From a virus (Duplodnaviria; Heunggongvirae; Uroviricota; Caudoviricetes), in the IMG/VR virus record IMGVR_UViG_2872688378_000003: a DNA stretch of 44,897 nucleotides. One strand, 5' to 3'. The notes beneath the pieces were generated by a model, which was not told the origin of the DNA, did no database searches, and saw nothing but the letters and a program-made list of their open reading frames with translations. Positions 1,917 through 40,988 of this stretch are shown in pieces; within the stretch, counting starts at the first letter, position 1; every line of letters begins with the position of its first letter. The position numbers and the translations under genes are program-made.

Positions 1917-2849
1917 ATGGACAACGACAAAATTGATCAACACAGCGACGAAATTGAAGTTGAGAGCGAAGAAAAAGAGCGCGGCAAAAAAATAGAAATA
2001 GATGAAGACCGACTCCCCTCCCGGGCGATGGCAATTCATGAGCATATCCGCCAGGATGGTGAAAAAGAGCTGGAACGCGACGCAGTGGCGCTACTGTGGT
2101 CAGCCATTGCGGCGGGTCTGTCGATGGGCGCTTCGTTACTGGCAAAAGGGATATTTCAAGTCGAACTGGAAGGTGTGCCGGGCAGCTTCTTGCTGGAGAA
2201 TCTCGGTTATACCTTTGGTTTTATTATCGTCATTATGGCCCGCCAGCAATTATTTACCGAAAATACCGTGACTGCGGTACTACCCGTCATGCAAAAACCG
2301 ACAATGAGCAACGTCGGCTTACTTATACGGTTATGGGGCGTCGTGCTGCTGGGTAATATTCTCGGGACAGGTATTGCGGCGTGGGCATTTGAATATATGC
2401 CTATCTTCAATGAAGAAACTCGCGATGCATTTGTCAAAATCGGCATGGATGTGATGAAGAACACCCCCAGCGAGATGTTTGCCAACGCGATCATTTCCGG
2501 CTGGCTGATCGCCACTATGGTTTGGATGTTTCCTGCAGCGGGTGCGGCAAAGATTGTGGTGATTATATTGATGACCTGGCTTATTGCCCTGGGTGACACC
2601 ACCCATATCGTGGTCGGTTCTGTTGAAATCCTCTATCTGGTGTTTAACGGTACGCTGCACTGGAGCGATTTCATCTGGCCCTTCGCACTACCTACTTTAG
2701 CGGGGAACATCTGCGGCGGCACCTTTATCTTCGCGTTAATGAGTCATGCACAGATTCGTAACGACATGAGCAATAAGCGTAAAGCAGAAGCACGCCAAAA
2801 AGCAGAACGTGCGGAAAACATTAAGAAAAATTATAAAAACCCGGCATAA
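1917..2849 (+). CDS. yfdC: Formate/nitrite transporter family inner-membrane protein YfdC
   Basis: 310-aa ORF, hydrophobic multi-pass membrane protein; position immediately upstream of argW as in K-12. Confidence 0.8.
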   Translation: MDNDKIDQHSDEIEVESEEKERGKKIEIDEDRLPSRAMAIHEHIRQDGEKELERDAVALLWSAIAAGLSMGASLLAKGIFQVELEGVPGSFLLENLGYTFGFIIVIMARQQLFTENTVTAVLPVMQKPTMSNVGLLIRLWGVVLLGNILGTGIAAWAFEYMPIFNEETRDAFVKIGMDVMKNTPSEMFANAIISGWLIATMVWMFPAAGAAKIVVIILMTWLIALGDTTHIVVGSVEILYLVFNGTLHWSDFIWPFALPTLAGNICGGTFIFALMSHAQIRNDMSNKRKAEARQKAERAENIKKNYKNPA

Positions 2850-2924
2850 ATGGCGAGGGTTTAAGCAATCGAGCGGCAGCGTACTTACCCCGCACTCCAT
2901 TAGCGGGTATACTCATGCCGCATT

Positions 2925-2999
2925 GTCCTCTTAGTTAAATGGATATAACGAGCCCCTCCTAAGGGCTAATTGCAGGTTCGATTCCTGCAGGGGACACCA
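2925..2999 (+). tRNA. argW: tRNA-Arg (anticodon CCU), argW; prophage integration site (attL side)
   Basis: 75-nt sequence GTCCTCTTAGTTAAATGG...GGTTCGATTCCTGCAGGGGACACCA with T-loop GGTTCGATTCC, CCA end and anticodon loop CTCCTAA. Confidence 0.95.
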
Positions 3000-3124
3000 T
3001 TTATCAGTTCGCTCCCATCCGTACCAGTCCGCAAAATCCCCTGAATATCAAGCCTTCCGTAGATTCACAGTTCGTCATGGTTCGCGTCAGATCGTTGACA
3101 GCCGCACTCCATGACGGGTAAAAA

Positions 3125-4318
3125 GTGGATAAAATAATTTTACCCACCGGATTTTTACCCATGCTCACCGTTAAGCAGATTGAAGCAGCAAAGCCGAAAG
3201 AAAAACCATACCGCCTACTCGATGGTAATGGCCTGTACCTTTATGTCCCTGTGTCAGGGAAAAAGGTATGGCAGCTTCGCTACAAGATTGACGGTAAGGA
3301 GAAAATCCTGACCGTCGGAAAATATCCGCTAATGACTTTGCAGGAGGCAAGAGATAAAGCATGGACCGCGAGGAAAGACATCTCGGTTGGCATCGATCCG
3401 GTAAAAGCGAAAAAGGCTTCGTCTAACAACAATTCCTTTAGTGCCATTTACAAGGAATGGTACGAGCACAAGAAGCAAGTCTGGTCAGTAGGCTATGCAA
3501 CTGAACTTGCCAAAATGTTTGATGACGACATTTTACCCATCATCGGCGGTCTTGAGATTCAGGATATTGAGCCGATGCAACTGCTGGAAGTAATCCGCAG
3601 ATTTGAAGATCGCGGTGCAATGGAGCGAGCCAACAAAGCCCGCAGAAGATGCGGCGAGGTTTTCCGTTACGCTATTGTCACCGGCAGGGCTAAATATAAC
3701 CCGGCACCTGACCTTGCTGACGCCATGAAGGGGTACCGCAAGAAGAACTTCCCGTTTCTTCCTGCAGACCAGATCCCGGCATTCAATAAAGCACTGGCAA
3801 CATTTTCAGGAAGTATCGTATCGCTCATTGCCACCAAGGTTTTACGCTACACTGCCCTAAGAACGAAAGAGCTTCGTTCCATGCTATGGAAGAACGTCGA
3901 TTTTGAAAACAGGATTATCACCATCGACGCCAGTGTGATGAAAGGACGCAAAATTCATGTGGTCCCGATGTCAGACCAGGTGGTTGAACTTCTCACTACG
4001 TTAAGCTCCATCACCAAACCAGTATCAGAGTTTGTTTTTGCCGGGCGCAACGATAAGAAGAAGCCAATCTGCGAGAATGCGGTACTGCTTGTGATCAAAC
4101 AAATCGGCTATGAAGGTCTGGAAAGCGGTCACGGATTCAGGCATGAATTCAGCACGATTATGAACGAGCACGAATGGCCTGCTGACGCTATTGAAGTGCA
4201 ACTGGCACATGCCAACGGCGGATCTGTGCGCGGGATTTACAACCATGCTCAGTATCTCGATAAGCGCAGAGAAATGATGCAATGGTGGGCGGACTGGCTT
4301 GATGAAAAGGTGGAGTGA
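3125..4318 (+). CDS. intS: Tyrosine integrase, P4/IntS family (prophage integrase)
   Basis: Translation contains the characteristic N-terminal MLTVKQIEAAKPKEKPYRLLDGNGLYLYV motif and C-terminal catalytic region (...HGFRHEF...YNHAQYL); likely true start is the ATG at 3161; lies directly after argW. Confidence 0.9.
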   Translation: MDKIILPTGFLPMLTVKQIEAAKPKEKPYRLLDGNGLYLYVPVSGKKVWQLRYKIDGKEKILTVGKYPLMTLQEARDKAWTARKDISVGIDPVKAKKASSNNNSFSAIYKEWYEHKKQVWSVGYATELAKMFDDDILPIIGGLEIQDIEPMQLLEVIRRFEDRGAMERANKARRRCGEVFRYAIVTGRAKYNPAPDLADAMKGYRKKNFPFLPADQIPAFNKALATFSGSIVSLIATKVLRYTALRTKELRSMLWKNVDFENRIITIDASVMKGRKIHVVPMSDQVVELLTTLSSITKPVSEFVFAGRNDKKKPICENAVLLVIKQIGYEGLESGHGFRHEFSTIMNEHEWPADAIEVQLAHANGGSVRGIYNHAQYLDKRREMMQWWADWLDEKVE

Positions 4319-35573: not shown

Positions 35574-36290
<717 letters not shown>

Positions 36291-36402: not shown

Positions 36403-37242
36403 ATGAAGAATGGTTTTTATGCGACTTACCGCAGCAAAAATAAAGGGAAAGATAAGCGCTCAATAAACCTGTCTGTTTTCCTTAATTCTCTGCTGGCTGA
36501 TAATCATCACCTGCAGGTTGGCTCCAATTATTTGTATATTCATAAAATCGATGGAAAAACTTTTCTCTTTACCAAAACAAATGACAAGAGTCTGGTTCAG
36601 AAGATAAATCGCTCTAAAGCTTCAGTTGAAGATATTAAGAACAGCCTCGCAGATGACGAATCATTGGGATTCCCATCTTTTTTGTTTGTTGAAGGCGACA
36701 CCATTGGTTTTGCCAGAACTGTTTTCGGGCCGACCACATCCGATCTGACAGATTTTTTAATCGGGAAAGGAATGTCATTAAGCAGTGGAGAGCGCGTTCA
36801 GATAGAGCCACTGATGAGGGGAACCACCAAAGACGATGTTATGCATATGCATTTCATCGGCCGAACAACGGTGAAGGTAGAAGCCAAGCTACCTGTATTT
36901 GGCGATATATTAAAGGTCTTAGGGGCAACAGATATTGAAGGGGAGCTTTTTGACTCATTGGATATAGTCATTAAGCCAAAATTTAAAAGGGATATAAAAA
37001 AGGTTGCCAAGGATATTATTTTTAACCCGTCACCTCAATTTTCAGACATTAGCCTGCGGGCAAAAGATGAGGCCGGAGATATTTTAACAGAACATTATCT
37101 ATCAGAAAAAGGCCATCTCTCAGCGCCTCTGAACAAGGTCACCAATGCTGAGATAGCTGAAGAGATGGCATATTGCTACGCAAGAATGAAAAGTGATATA
37201 CTGGAATGTTTTAAAAGGCAGGTGGGCAAAGTTAAGGATTAA
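36403..37242 (+). CDS. rexA: RexA, abortive-infection/exclusion system component
   Basis: 279-aa translation MKNGFYATYRSKNKGKDKRSINLSVFLNSLLADNHHLQ... matches lambda RexA. Confidence 0.9.
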   Translation: MKNGFYATYRSKNKGKDKRSINLSVFLNSLLADNHHLQVGSNYLYIHKIDGKTFLFTKTNDKSLVQKINRSKASVEDIKNSLADDESLGFPSFLFVEGDTIGFARTVFGPTTSDLTDFLIGKGMSLSSGERVQIEPLMRGTTKDDVMHMHFIGRTTVKVEAKLPVFGDILKVLGATDIEGELFDSLDIVIKPKFKRDIKKVAKDIIFNPSPQFSDISLRAKDEAGDILTEHYLSEKGHLSAPLNKVTNAEIAEEMAYCYARMKSDILECFKRQVGKVKD

Positions 37243-37257
37243 TTATCAGGAGTAATT

Positions 37258-37692
37258 ATGCGGAACAGAATCATGCCTGGTGTTTACATAGTAATAATTC
37301 CTTACGTTATCGTAAGCATTTGCTATCTCCTTTTCCGCCACTACATTCCTGGTGTTTCTTTTTCAGCTCATAGAGATGGTCTTGGGGCGACATTGTCATC
37401 ATATGCAGGAACCATGATTGCAATCCTGATTGCTGCCTTGACGTTTCTAATCGGAAGCAGAACGCGCCGACTGGCCAAGATTAGAGAGTATGGGTATATG
37501 ACATCGGTAGTTATTGTCTATGCCCTTAGTTTTGTTGAGCTTGGAGCTTTGTTTTTCTGCGGGTTATTGCTTCTTTCCAGCATAAGCGGCTACATGATAC
37601 CCACTATCGCCATCGGCATTGCCTCTGCATCGTTCATTCATATATGCATCCTTGTTTTCCAACTATATAATTTGACCAGAGAACAAGAATAA
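37258..37692 (+). CDS. rexB: RexB, membrane component of Rex exclusion system
   Basis: 144-aa hydrophobic multi-TM protein matching lambda RexB. Confidence 0.9.
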   Translation: MRNRIMPGVYIVIIPYVIVSICYLLFRHYIPGVSFSAHRDGLGATLSSYAGTMIAILIAALTFLIGSRTRRLAKIREYGYMTSVVIVYALSFVELGALFFCGLLLLSSISGYMIPTIAIGIASASFIHICILVFQLYNLTREQE

Positions 37693-37722: not shown

Positions 37723-37865
37723 CACGATCGCCCCCAAAACACATAACCAATTGTATTTATTGAAAAATAAATAGATACAACTCACTAAACATAGCAATTC
37801 AGATCTCTCACCTACCAAACAATGCCCCCCTGCAAAAAATAAATTCATATAAAAAACATACAGAT

Positions 37866-37928
37866 AACCATCTGCGGTGATAAATTATCTCTGGCGGTGT
37901 TGACATAAATACCACTGGCGGTGATACT
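37866..37928 (+). promoter_or_regulatory. Left operator OL3-OL2-OL1 and promoter pL
   Basis: Operators AACCATCTGCGGTGATA, TATCTCTGGCGGTGTTG, TACCACTGGCGGTGATA; -35 TTGACA 37900-37905, -10 GATACT 37923-37928. Confidence 0.9.
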
Positions 37929-37967
37929 GAGCGCATCAGCAGGACGCACTGACCACCATGAAGGTGA

Positions 37968-37998
37968 CGCTCTTAAAAATTAAGCCCTGAAGAAGGGC
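37968..37998 (+). promoter_or_regulatory. nutL (boxA CGCTCTTA, boxB GCCCTGAAGAAGGGC)
   Basis: Exact boxA at 37968-37975 and boxB hairpin at 37984-37998 in the pL leader. Confidence 0.85.
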
Positions 37999-38078
37999 AG
38001 CATTCAAAGCAGAAGGCTTTGGGGTGTGTGATACGAAACGAAGCATTGGCCGGAAGTGCGATTCCGGATTAGCTGCCA

Positions 38079-38489
38079 ATGTGCCAATCGCGGGGGGTTT
38101 TCGTTCAGGACTACAACTGCCACACACCACCAAAGCTAACTGACAGGAGAATCCAGATGGATGCACAAACACGCCGCCGCGAACGTCGCGCAGAGAAACA
38201 GGCTCAATGGAAAGCAGCAAATCCCCTGTTGGTTGGGGTAAGCGCAAAACCAGTTAACCGCCCTATTCTCTCGCTGAATCGCAAACCGAAATCACGAGTA
38301 GAAAGCGCACTGAATCCGATAGACCTTACGGTGCTGGCTGAATACCACGAACAGATTGAAAGCAACCTGCAACGTATTGAGCGCAAGAATCAGCGCACAT
38401 GGTACAGCAAGCCACGCAGTGAAATGGGTGTGACATGCTCAGGCCGCCAGAAGCAACGCGGAAAATCAATTCCAGCTTATTACGATTGA
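38079..38489 (+). CDS. N: Antiterminator N
   Basis: Translation from ATG at 38157: MDAQTRRRERRAEKQAQWKAANPLLVGVSAKPVNRPILSLNRKPKSRVESALNPIDLTVLAEYH... matches lambda N (C-terminus slightly divergent); ORF-track start 38079 is upstream of the true start. Confidence 0.9.
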   Translation: MCQSRGVFVQDYNCHTPPKLTDRRIQMDAQTRRRERRAEKQAQWKAANPLLVGVSAKPVNRPILSLNRKPKSRVESALNPIDLTVLAEYHEQIESNLQRIERKNQRTWYSKPRSEMGVTCSGRQKQRGKSIPAYYD

Positions 38490-38493
38490 GGTG

Positions 38494-38631
38494 AGCCATG
38501 CTCAAGAAAGTCAAACGCCGACTTTACAAAGAAGGTAGATATTCATGCCAGTTGCCAAAATGCGACACAACAAAATGGAGTGTCGATGATTGGTGTAACT
38601 GGATAGATAGATACGGAACTTGGTGGGATAA
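38494..38631 (+). CDS. Small hypothetical protein (45 aa), below ORF-track cutoff
   Basis: Hand translation MLKKVKRRLYKEGRYSCQLPKCDTTKWSVDDWCNWIDRYGTWWDK; ATG 5 nt after N stop with SD-like GGTGAG. Confidence 0.35.
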
Positions 38632-38689
38632 ATAACAGGTAACTTAAGCGGATTTACTTTCGCAGCAAACCACTTATTTGAGGTGAGAT

Positions 38690-39160
38690 ATGACAAAATC
38701 ATGGAGCGTACCTTTTCCTGAATCAGAAACTGAACATGATGGAATGCCTGTTTTCTGGAGATTCCAGTCGACAGTTGAAGAAGATGGGATAAAAATATTC
38801 GCACTTCAATATATAGCTTTTCATCAGACAGAGCATTATGCATGGTTGGTTCCTGCGCATTGGGTTGTTGATTTTAAACCAGCACCAAATCAGTGGTTAC
38901 AGGAATGGAAACAAAGGAGAAATAGATATGCAATTAAGAAAGTAGCAAAAAATGCAGAAAGATCTTTTGCATTCCCAACGAAGAAACTTGCTATTGAAAG
39001 TTTATTGCGCCGGAAGAAATACCATTTAATGAGAATCAAACAAGATTTGGCTGTTGTATCAACTCTTGTTGATGGGATGAAGAATATTGATACATCAACA
39101 CCAGATATTGAATATAACTTTGGGCACAACCAAGAAACAGAAAATTGGGTATTTTATTAG
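38690..39160 (+). CDS. Hypothetical protein in N-proximal accessory position (156 aa)
   Basis: AT-rich (about 35-38 percent GC) ORF directly downstream of N, hydrophilic, no family recognised. Confidence 0.55.
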   Translation: MTKSWSVPFPESETEHDGMPVFWRFQSTVEEDGIKIFALQYIAFHQTEHYAWLVPAHWVVDFKPAPNQWLQEWKQRRNRYAIKKVAKNAERSFAFPTKKLAIESLLRRKKYHLMRIKQDLAVVSTLVDGMKNIDTSTPDIEYNFGHNQETENWVFY

Positions 39161-39264
39161 TACGAGTAAGCACTGTGTATTCATTCCAACGAGTGAATAC
39201 ACGGAGCAATGTCGCTCGTAACTAAACAGGAGCCGACTTGTTCTGATTATTGGAAATCTTCTTT

Positions 39265-39291
39265 GCCCTCCAATGTGAGGGCGATTTTTTA
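39265..39291 (+). terminator. Rho-independent terminator after the 156-aa gene
   Basis: Stem GCCCTC / GAGGGC with loop CAATGT followed by GATTTTTTAT; preceded by a second hairpin GTGTATTCA...TGAATACAC at 39175-39202. Confidence 0.7.
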
Positions 39292-39310
39292 TCTATGAGG
39301 ATATGAATAG

Positions 39311-39679
39311 ATGTCAAACATCAAAAAATACATCATTGATTACGACTGGAAAGCGTCAATAGAAATTGAAATCGACCATGACGTAATGACAGAGGAAAAA
39401 CTTCACCAGATTAATAATTTCTGGTCAGACTCTGAATACCGACTCAATAAACACGGCGCTGTATTAAATGCTGTATTAATCATGCTGGCGCAACATGCTC
39501 TGCTTATAGCAATTTCGAAAGACTTAAATGCATATGGTGTTGTTTGTGAGTTCGACTGGGATGATGGAAATGGTCAGGAAGGATGGCCTCCAATGGATGG
39601 TAGTGAAGGAATAAGAATTACCGATATCGATACATCAGGAATATTTGATTCAGATGATATGACTATCAAAGCCGCCTGA
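39311..39679 (+). CDS. Hypothetical acidic protein (122 aa)
   Basis: ORF with SD upstream (GAGGATATGAATAGATG); acidic C-terminus; no family confidently recognised. Confidence 0.5.
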   Translation: MSNIKKYIIDYDWKASIEIEIDHDVMTEEKLHQINNFWSDSEYRLNKHGAVLNAVLIMLAQHALLIAISKDLNAYGVVCEFDWDDGNGQEGWPPMDGSEGIRITDIDTSGIFDSDDMTIKAA

Positions 39680-39703: not shown

Positions 39704-39889
39704 ATGCTTCACCAGAGGCATTTTCGTTATGCAATCAAATATAAGGAGTTACCCATGATGCACTTTCAGCTCGCGGGTAGCGGCGTCATGTCCGCTTTCT
39801 ACCCGCACGAATCTGAATTATCACGCCGAGTTAAACAATTAATCAGAGCAGCAAAGAAACAACTGGAGGCGTTATGCGCAATGAAATAG
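39704..39889 (+). CDS. CIII-like protease-inhibitor protein
   Basis: From internal ATG about 39755: MMHFQLAGSGVMSAFYPHESELSRRVKQLIRAAKKQL resembles the CIII amphipathic core (AIAG...PSESLLxRxTRxLRxGW). Confidence 0.5.
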   Translation: MLHQRHFRYAIKYKELPMMHFQLAGSGVMSAFYPHESELSRRVKQLIRAAKKQLEALCAMK

Positions 39890-40280
39890 CCATCAATCAC
39901 CAGATGCTTCGTGCAGCACAAAACAAAGCAGTAATAGCCCGATTTATTGGTGATTCAAAAATGTGGCTTGAAGCAAATAAAGCGATGAAATCAGCTATCA
40001 ACCTTCCGTGGTATCGCAGGAAATGAGTTTTACAGATAACTGGTCAGACGAAGAATTCATTCGTCAGATGAAAGAATTAATCGATAACGAAGGAGATATT
40101 CATGTCACTTGCAACCACAGTGAAGGAGAGCAAGTTACAGAGGCGCATGTACACGCAGAAAGCTCTCTGGTATCGCCATAATGGTAACCGCGAAGGAATG
40201 CGGGTATGCCTTAATTTGTCCAGAGTCGAAGTATTAAATCAGCGTTATTTCCTTGGGCCGTGTCCATTCTGAGGTGAATT

Positions 40281-40988
40281 ATGGATTTGAATAAATTCGA
40301 TGAGCCATTCAGCCCTGAAGATATCGAATGGCGAATACAGCAAAGCGGTAAAACACGCGATGGCAAAGTGTGGGCTATGGTGCTGGCTTATGTCACGAAC
40401 CGGGCAATCATGAAACGCCTGGACGATGTTTGCGGCAAAGCAGGATGGCGCAATGAATACCGCGATATTCCCAACAACGGCGGAGTTGAATGCGGCATAT
40501 CAATAAAGATTGATTCCGAATGGGTAACCAAATGGGATGCTGCTGAAAACACGCAGGTAGAAGCCGTCAAAGGTGGTCGTTCCGGTGCAATGAAGCGCGC
40601 TGCCGTTCAGTGGGGAATCGGTCGGTATCTGTATAACCTTGAGGAAGGTTTCGCACAAACATCTCTCGATAAAAAGCAGGGATGGCACAGGGCAAAACTC
40701 AAGGATGGAACAGGATTTTACTGGCTCCCTCCATCGCTGCCGGGATGGGCAATACCAGCATCAGATAACAAACCATCACCAGAAAATACCAACCAGAAAT
40801 CTCCATCGGTTGACTGCGAACAAATCCTGAAAGACTTCAGCGATTATGCGTCAACAGAAACTGACAAGAAAAAACTCATCGAGCGTTATCAGCGTGACTG
40901 GCAATTAATGGCTGGAAACGAGGAGGCGCAGGCTAAATGCGTTCAGGTAATGAACATCAGAGTTAACGAGCTAAAACAGGCGGCATAA
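40281..40988 (+). CDS. Rad52/Sak-family single-strand annealing recombinase
   Basis: N-terminal region with ...AMKRAAVQWGIGRYLYNL... signature; sits where lambda has bet. Confidence 0.65.
   Translation: MDLNKFDEPFSPEDIEWRIQQSGKTRDGKVWAMVLAYVTNRAIMKRLDDVCGKAGWRNEYRDIPNNGGVECGISIKIDSEWVTKWDAAENTQVEAVKGGRSGAMKRAAVQWGIGRYLYNLEEGFAQTSLDKKQGWHRAKLKDGTGFYWLPPSLPGWAIPASDNKPSPENTNQKSPSVDCEQILKDFSDYASTETDKKKLIERYQRDWQLMAGNEEAQAKCVQVMNIRVNELKQAA

Follow-up and report, generated by a model that had tools for sequence, protein, structure and literature searches.

The segment between the antiterminator gene N and the ea10-like gene of a lambda-like E. coli prophage (positions 38490–39291 of a 44,897-nt stretch of phage DNA, hereafter the window) is a variable cargo slot of the lambdoid PL operon, together with the conserved small RNA (sRNA) locus that closes it. 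In the window, the slot is occupied by two small genes, ORF45 and ORF156. We propose that these are early, PL-driven and host-directed accessory cassettes which, along with the sRNA PreS, make up one package; for this reading as a whole, we estimate a probability of roughly 0.5. The anatomy of the locus and the identities of its parts are put forward with high confidence.

The early-left operon is read on the plus strand. The features of the region are as follows:

35577–36290: cI.
36403–37242: rexA.
37258–37692: rexB.
37900–37928, plus strand: PL promoter (TTGACA, 17-nt spacer, GATACT; 10 of 12 consensus matches in the promoter scan).
37984–37998, plus strand: hairpin GCCCTGAAGAAGGGC inside the lambda-homologous stretch, which we take to be the nutL boxB by comparison with the anatomy of lambda.
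38157–38489, plus strand: antiterminator gene N, 110 aa (Pfam N36, E 1.6e-26).
38487–38497, plus strand: N/ORF45 junction, with the N stop codon TGA at 38487–38489 and the Shine-Dalgarno sequence GAGGTGAG at 38488–38495.
38498–38635, plus strand: ORF45, 45 aa, 5.7 kDa, DUF5484 (Pfam E 2.6e-12; phrog_1871, E 1.4e-22).
38668–38689, plus strand: cassette linker AACCACTTATTTGAGGTGAGAT, carrying the Shine-Dalgarno sequence for the cargo gene after ORF45.
38690–39160, plus strand: ORF156, 156 aa, 18.6 kDa, basic (phrog_1636, E 5.4e-111 over residues 1–156).
39175–39202, plus strand: 12-bp hairpin (RNA fold), directly upstream of the expected PreS 5' end.
39203–39291, plus strand: PreS/LPR1 homologue, ~88 nt (ends placed from the 88-nt length).
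39263–39284 (stem, 8 pairs) and 39285–39290 (T-run, TTTTTT), plus strand: intrinsic terminator (terminator scan).
39311–39679, plus strand: ea10-like gene, DUF2528 (Pfam E 4e-46; DNA homologous to lambda ea10).
39874–40026: kil.

The terminator scan also caught the nutL boxB hairpin, as a hairpin on the opposite strand.

The borders of the slot are defined by alignment with lambda DNA. Upstream, the PL region is 95.7% identical to the lambda PL–N DNA (37817–38473); N is of the lambda type with a differing C-terminal end, and the lambda homology ends at 38473, 16 nt short of the stop codon. It resumes at 39170, 10 nt past the ORF156 stop, and runs through ea10, the ea10-like gene being the first gene past the PreS terminator. 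Block 38474–39169 thereby exactly replaces the lambda genes sieB-orf28-ral, and its GC content of 37.5%, against a window mean of 49.4%, places it within the lowest 1.2% of 696-bp windows. The first-pass annotation, which was made from the sequence alone, had described a Cys/Trp-rich ORF of 45 aa right after N, a hydrophilic ORF of 156 aa, markedly AT-rich DNA, and a hairpin followed by a rho-independent terminator, all of which are found at the positions listed above. Its expectation that this position in lambda carries ral, sieB and kil holds for sieB-orf28-ral but not for kil, which in lambda, as here, lies downstream of the slot. Copies identical to the N-adjacent stretch are present in five complete E. 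coli genomes, e.g., that of strain CUVET20-1667. An antisense 110-aa ORF at 38511–38843, where sieB is situated in lambda, has no family match and spans the mosaic junction; it was treated as spurious.

The hairpin and terminator belong to an element that has already been described. In lambda, PreS (LPR1) is an Hfq-dependent sRNA encoded between ral and ea10; it is ~88 nt long, is processed to ~68 nt, and ends at the terminator named tL2a (bioRxiv 10.1101/2024.10.31.621285). Lambda produces it during the lytic cycle, and it up-regulates the host gene dnaN (bioRxiv 10.1101/2024.10.31.621285; review PMC12197685). Positions 39167–39290 of the window differ from lambda in a single base, located in the terminator loop, and in a five-way alignment of the window with lambda, 933W, phi458 and Bas106 this stretch is invariant save for terminator-loop bases, the hairpin at 39175–39202 being identical in all five. 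By this sequence identity, the hairpin and terminator are the PreS/LPR1 locus, which agrees with that of lambda in its upstream hairpin, its terminator and its position before ea10. The start of PreS is placed near 39203, right after the hairpin, because an 88-nt RNA would then end in the T-run. The RNA fold of 39161–39295 has a z-score of −4.7, and the GC-rich terminator hairpin with a U-run, as in Hfq-dependent sRNAs, is present in the homologue; Rfam 15 holds no family for the hairpin or terminator, whether searched at the gathering threshold or with E values up to 1. Lying 10 nt past the ORF156 stop, PreS would in effect be the 3'UTR of the ORF156 message, i.e., it forms the 3' end of the predicted ORF156 transcript here, whereas in lambda it forms that of ral.

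ORF45, the first gene of the slot, encodes a small protein with 3 Cys, 5 Trp and a pI of 9.4 (gene GC 39.9%). It scores 46.7 bits against Pfam DUF5484 (PF17583; gathering cut-off 27), with residues 5–42 of 45 covered, and this is its sole match in the family libraries Pfam, NCBIfam and PADLOC. By tblastn, homologues were recovered in 1037 phage records, mostly from T-even phages, where the gene is 55.4 and the identity is ~50%; in a lambdoid Erwinia phage, the gene is situated in the early-left region, and Shigella phage Sf6 has the same 45-aa protein under the name "gene 36 protein". The motif DTTKWSVxDW is kept at ~50% identity in T-even, Klebsiella and Erwinia phages, and residues K6, D23, T24, W27 and V29 are invariant in 14 DUF5484 members of ~43–48 aa from T-even, Erwinia and lambdoid phages. 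T-even gp55.4 and the Sf6 gene 36 product thus share length and core motif with ORF45; the lambdoid branch, however, possesses three Cys and extra Trp residues, all of which are missing in the T-even members, and ORF45 adjoins N, whereas the T-even gene resides in the 55.x cluster. A zinc-ribbon or Cys-knot architecture was considered for ORF45 and rejected, since the T-even members have no Cys at those positions and the cysteines are, hence, not conserved across the family. The AlphaFold2 (AF2) model of ORF45 (pLDDT 75.7) suggests a helix-strand-helix-strand order.

ORF45 starts 8 nt past the N stop codon, and its own Shine-Dalgarno sequence overlaps that stop. Because the N stop codon sits inside this ribosome-binding site, translational coupling of ORF45 to N is likely. 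The Shine-Dalgarno sequence GAGGTGAG is identical for ORF45 (context TTGAGGTGAGCCATG) and ORF156 (context TTGAGGTGAGATATG), with each start two bases downstream, and TGAGGTGAGnnATG occurs only twice in the window, namely before these two genes. Judged by the DUF5484 score above cut-off, the ~50% identical homologues and the Shine-Dalgarno sequence, ORF45 is a real gene and not a chance ORF. Its absence from the ORF track that accompanied the first-pass annotation is due to the length cut-off of that list.

ORF156 encodes a hydrophilic, basic protein (GRAVY −0.60, pI 8.8) that contains no Cys; the GC content of the gene is 36.1%. The protein is 97.4% identical to HK97 gp45 and 98.1% identical to 933W L0079, and the gene is carried by many Stx1- and Stx2-converting phages. 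In HK97 and 933W, it occupies the same position as here, immediately between N and the PreS terminator, and there is no material difference in the protein; the window combines it with lambda immunity (cI, rexAB), a lambda-type N, and ORF45. Homologues covering the full length, with identities down to 54%, are found in Escherichia, Cronobacter, Pectobacterium, Brenneria and Rosenbergiella, and pN/pS against six close relatives is 0.08–0.48, indicating at the sequence level that ORF156 is under purifying selection. With these homologues, these pN/pS values and its Shine-Dalgarno sequence, ORF156 is likewise a real gene, not a chance ORF. When 1.8 billion representative proteins were searched with a profile, 87 relatives emerged, mostly of 130–155 aa, and no Pfam domain was found in 41 remote relatives.

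The sequence and structure searches proposed in the first-pass annotation delivered identities—HK97 gp45/L0079 for ORF156 and DUF5484 for ORF45—but no functional assignment. All sources name members of the ORF156 family "hypothetical" or "prophage protein". ORF156 has no match in Pfam or NCBIfam; against PADLOC-DB 2.0, it gave only a 12-bit chance match to Cas1_II, and ORF45 gave none. Single-sequence and profile searches of the PDB returned chance matches only, no report on function was found in the literature on L0079, DUF5484, phrog_1636 or HK97 gp45, and the peptide strings had no match in the supplements of an accessory-gene screen (PMC12373910). Across libraries, PDB and literature, then, we found no homology, structural match or published experiment giving a function for either gene.

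The AF2 model of ORF156, based on an 80-sequence alignment, has a mean pLDDT of 95.4 and a pTM of 0.82, and it predicts a compact, confidently folded α/β protein. In the model, the antiparallel strands 19–30, 33–46 and 50–55 form an N-terminal three-stranded β-sheet, followed by short helices (56–61, 66–74), a short strand (83–86) and a 33-residue, Lys/Arg-rich helix (98–130); the C-terminal tail is ordered and packs back. Basic residues that are conserved (K84, K87, R91, R107–K110 and R115) map to the hairpin and to the first half of the long helix. A Foldseek search of predicted viral structures returned 12 matches at E ≤ 1e-3 (TM 0.44–0.65), all of them uncharacterised proteins, from phages of Erwinia, Tenacibaculum, Achromobacter, Sinorhizobium, Rhizobium, Delftia and Cellulophaga. 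As these matches are all uncharacterised and come from such diverse phages, the predicted fold is a phage-restricted and widespread one without a solved or annotated relative.

How variable the slot is becomes evident upon comparison of this position across related prophages, as the first-pass annotation had suggested. The order is N-ORF156-PreS in 933W and HK97 and N-ORF45-Ral-PreS in phi458 and a second locus (L017); other relatives have N-ORF45-Nmad5-ORF156, N'-ORF45-Ral-ORF156, N-ORF45-(87-aa protein)-ORF156 or N-ORF45-(83-aa protein), and phage Bas106 has N-ORF45-ORF156 plus two more genes. In a survey of 80 IMG/VR loci with ORF45, 74 had PreS downstream, and in these 74 the ORF45–PreS interval spans 260–1590 nt and holds at least 14 families in ~45 arrangements. 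The most frequent occupants are Ral (28 loci), ORF156 (14), phrog_2471 (11), phrog_33140 (6) and Nmad5 (5); phrog_1273, phrog_2201, phrog_10407, phrog_6949, DUF7446, phrog_37822, phrog_3054 (a two-transmembrane protein), phrog_19863 and phrog_4658 complete the range of families. In 80 loci selected for the presence of ORF156, the gene is nearly always flanked upstream by an N allele, either of the 933W or of the lambda type, and directly downstream by PreS. The two genes are accessory, and the refuting case named in the first-pass annotation, their presence in most relatives, does not apply: among 5426 complete E. coli genomes, 2236 carry PreS DNA (3197 places), 597 carry ORF156 (832 places) and 145 carry ORF45.

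The mode of exchange is indicated by the linker AACCACTTATTTGAGGTGAGAT, which has 30 occurrences in 29 of 56 related loci. The codons that follow it vary (ATGACA, ATGGAA, ATGGAC, ATGGAG, ATGGGA) and open different genes, and the insertions in three loci (L004, L005 and L006) map exactly to the linker at 38668–38689. Since the same linker precedes the starts of different genes, exchange takes place right at the ATG; cassettes, each consisting of little beyond a strong ribosome-binding site and an ORF, are often swapped with start-codon precision downstream of this common ribosome-binding linker. Of the claim that this is a hotspot for defence cargo, the variable cargo slot therefore stands, but for an anti-restriction, exclusion or defence function of the two genes nothing was found in PADLOC, Pfam, NCBIfam, the PDB or the literature.

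Scanning of the plus strand returned PL, a single 9/12 promoter-like match within ORF156 (at 38768), and nothing resembling a terminator ahead of 39263; the region is no richer in promoter-like sites than shuffled sequence. ORF45 and ORF156 lie in the PL direction between nutL/N and the first predicted intrinsic terminator. With no standout promoter and no intrinsic terminator between PL and PreS, we infer that both proteins would be produced only in lytic growth, from PL and along with N. The lysogen would not express them, and they would appear together with N as soon as lytic growth begins. Their targets would be in the host, rather than in phage morphogenesis or lysogeny.

The occupant of the slot with which ORF156 is best compared is the anti-restriction protein Ral, which uses the same position between N (or ORF45) and PreS, with the same predicted transcription. 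The proteins themselves differ: Ral has 66 aa and is Cys-rich, whereas ORF156 has 156 aa, is basic and is devoid of Cys. As the first-pass annotation had judged, neither ORF resembles Ral or SieB; BLASTP of ORF156 and ORF45 against lambda Ral gave nothing better than E 25, a Pfam/NCBIfam Ral match is absent, and the best segment against lambda SieB reaches E 0.2 over 14 residues. Co-occurrence of Ral and ORF156 is seen in 1 of the 74 loci, against 5.3 expected (Fisher one-sided p 0.007, with loci that are related and not independent); this partial mutual exclusivity is, because of that relatedness, suggestive only. A function common to ORF156 and Ral is hypothetical only.

Of the slot families, Ral alone has a function that has been demonstrated, and a role has been described for Nmad5. 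In a study on Dhillonvirus, Nmad5 is described as a DNA modification enzyme of phages, and one mutation in nmad5 is enough to keep the Tmn defence from sensing infection (PMC11846954). Kinship of ORF156 to the Dhillonvirus anti-Tmn protein, which was considered since Nmad5 lies near ORF156-family genes, was discarded, as architecture and lineage differ. The DUF5484 gene, in turn, sits in the T-even 55.x early cluster, i.e., the same cluster that holds the small early proteins 55.1 and 55.2 of T4, which are of a similar size class to ORF45; T4 55.2 inhibits host topoisomerase I (PMC4396842). There is no sequence relationship between 55.1 or 55.2 and ORF45, and the analogy concerns the kind of function only.

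Based on the slot neighbours Ral and Nmad5, the exclusivity of Ral and ORF156, and the T-even 55.x cluster, we favour an early, host-directed role for the two genes, for which we consider the odds slightly better than even. ORF156 would most likely act in early counter-defence or host takeover, binding a host protein or nucleic acid via the surface formed by its basic helix and hairpin, and it would stand in the slot as an alternative to Ral. By analogy with the neighbouring T4 ORFans 55.1 and 55.2, ORF45 would most likely be a small host-protein binder. Counter-defence specifically is a tentative proposal: the slot argument is one of guilt by association, because most cargo families are without an assigned function, and the basic character of ORF156 (known anti-restriction DNA mimics are acidic) counts against it. 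Its most far-reaching form, according to which ORF156 is a phage-restricted fold that inhibits host restriction or defence as an alternative to Ral, and the N–PreS interval, ORF45 included, is an anti-defence island, we regard as rather doubtful.

The position next to N is not a trait of the ORF156 family, since the Pectobacterium homologue adjoins xis-int and not N; this N-distant homologue was counted against the best explanation. It also bears on a phage-internal role, in which ORF156 would be a nucleic-acid-binding regulator or a replication/recombination helper and ORF45 a partner or modulator of N. Such a role would be in keeping with homologues that adjoin xis-int in Pectobacterium and in a further locus (L015), and with a remote Vibrio phage homologue that immediately follows a cro-like HTH gene (Nmad5 is three genes further along); another remote homologue, in a Pantoea phage, is two genes after a cytosine methyltransferase. 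The surroundings of these remote homologues are early regions. ORF45, moreover, travels with the 3' end of N, to which it is probably coupled in translation. We nevertheless deem a phage-internal role unlikely, given that the genes are dispensable, being missing from lambda and from most PreS-bearing prophages, that they are freely combined with N alleles, immunity regions and recombination modules of unrelated kinds, and that T-even phages possess ORF45 homologues. T-even phages are not known to carry N.

A second alternative assigns the genes to defence or superinfection exclusion expressed in the lysogen, in the manner of lambda sieB and rexAB. The same slot holds sieB in lambda, the AT-rich DNA has an imported look, and the slot cargo includes the two-transmembrane phrog_3054, a possible exclusion factor. 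The expression signals argue against it, as the only nearby promoter-like match is the weak 9/12 site inside ORF156, at the level of shuffled sequence overall, and the genes are read in the PL direction, where they would be repressed together with N. Neither protein has a PADLOC match, membrane segments or likeness to SieB, which in lambda is annotated on the opposite strand of the same interval, whereas ORF156 is soluble and hydrophilic. Furthermore, relatives are present in a diverse set of phages as well as in T-even phages, the latter having no lysogens to protect; the same presumably holds for some of the other phages with relatives. Some phages with structural relatives of ORF156 are virulent, which makes a role specific to lysogeny less likely. 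Altogether, lysogen-expressed exclusion is quite improbable. That ORF45 is a decaying remnant, or a spacer giving only RNA context between N and the cargo, is most improbable: the NCBI pipeline annotates it in none of the 40 RefSeq E. coli matches listed (of 145), C-termini are truncated or replaced in several relatives, and close copies differ by too few substitutions to gauge selection, but the Pfam score exceeds the curated cut-off, homologues with ~50% identity keep DTTKWSVxDW in T-even, Klebsiella and Erwinia phages, the GAGGTGAG Shine-Dalgarno sequence is perfect and ideally spaced, and the phage Sf6 record annotates the gene as gene 36.

Returning to early, PL-driven, host-directed cassettes, no new kind of element is involved: PreS is published, ORF45 belongs to a Pfam DUF, and ORF156 has been in the HK97 and 933W sequences since their first genome records. 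New are the exact map of the slot with start-codon-precise exchange behind a common linker, the partial exclusivity of ORF156 and Ral, and the recognition of ORF156 as a confident, phage-only predicted fold without a solved relative. In addition, a conserved "terminator" can now be read as the sRNA PreS, and ORF45 emerges as a gene that is unannotated in every RefSeq match listed. The N–PreS cassette slot is found in ~40% of complete E. coli genomes, and ORF156 is among its commonest occupants, being present in O157:H7 Stx-converting phages and in the model phage HK97. Because ORF156 is common, is confidently folded without a solved relative and tends to exclude Ral, it is a sensible first candidate for a counter-defence screen, for which HK97 offers a ready genetic system. 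In the rather doubtful case that ORF156 does inhibit a host defence as an alternative to Ral, the N–PreS interval of lambdoid phages would be a compact anti-defence island whose dozen or so uncharacterised families of cassettes would each be directed at a host system of its own.

ORF45, the 45-aa DUF5484 gene directly downstream of the antiterminator gene N, belongs to a Pfam family and is annotated in the phages Sf6, SfI and Bas106. Nevertheless, of the 145 complete E. coli genomes that carry it (window 38498-38635), the 40 listed hits (H106-H145) all lack an NCBI-annotated feature over it. The gene is accompanied by the final ~28 codons of N (window 38403-38489; related loci L005, L018 and L019), and this 3' end stays with ORF45 even where the remaining N-like gene is another allele, a 101-aa "hypothetical protein", which places a mosaic joint inside N.

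At the other end of ORF45, the C-terminus is replaced in some relatives (proteins P0036-P0040). The reading frame of one of these, P0038, runs directly into the hairpin region of PreS, the homologue of the lambda sRNA, ending ...SEYTEQCRS; thus, the whole cargo between ORF45 and PreS is deleted there.

Two further reading frames overlap these elements:
window 39209-39298, an ORF of 29 aa contained wholly within PreS and its terminator
window 38511-38843, minus strand, an antisense ORF of 110 aa that overlaps ORF45 and the beginning of ORF156 (the 156-aa HK97 gp45-family gene)

For the former, phage Bas106 has an annotated counterpart (L001 5226-5324), a hypothetical protein of 32 aa; this is probably an sRNA that has been taken for a gene. 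At the position of the antisense ORF, lambda carries sieB on the opposite strand. Since this ORF has no family match and crosses a mosaic junction, it is probably spurious as a gene.

The immunity region is that of lambda, despite a non-lambda recombination module, which comprises Rad52-like, SSB and Abc2-like functions in the window as opposed to Gam-Bet-Exo in lambda. In window 40271-40988, the third plus-strand GAGGTGA precedes the Rad52-family recombinase gene. The left end contains:
window 1917-4318, the left-end features together, including a formate/nitrite-transporter-family gene
window 2925-2999, tRNA-Arg(CCT)
window 3125-4318, tyrosine integrase

The integrase is directly followed by large minus-strand ORFs, presumably structural genes, and therefore does not occupy the far end of the early-left (PL) operon, where it is located in lambda.

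Among the 80 ORF45-carrying loci (L104-L183), three have no ORF of at least 40 aa between ORF45 and PreS. The cargo across the L104-L183 loci includes phrog_3054, a protein of 121-149 aa with two hydrophobic segments, in which a conserved N-terminus and C-terminus flank a variable middle and which may serve as an exclusion factor or a membrane factor. Nmad5 genes repeatedly adjoin or neighbour ORF156-family genes, both in E. coli prophages and in one Vibrio phage, at the following loci:
L004, 2203-2826
L012, 6448-7080
L138, L141, L147 and L164

In a study of Dhillonvirus, nmad5 is described as encoding a DNA modification enzyme, and after a single nmad5 mutation the Tmn defence reportedly no longer senses infection (PMC11846954).
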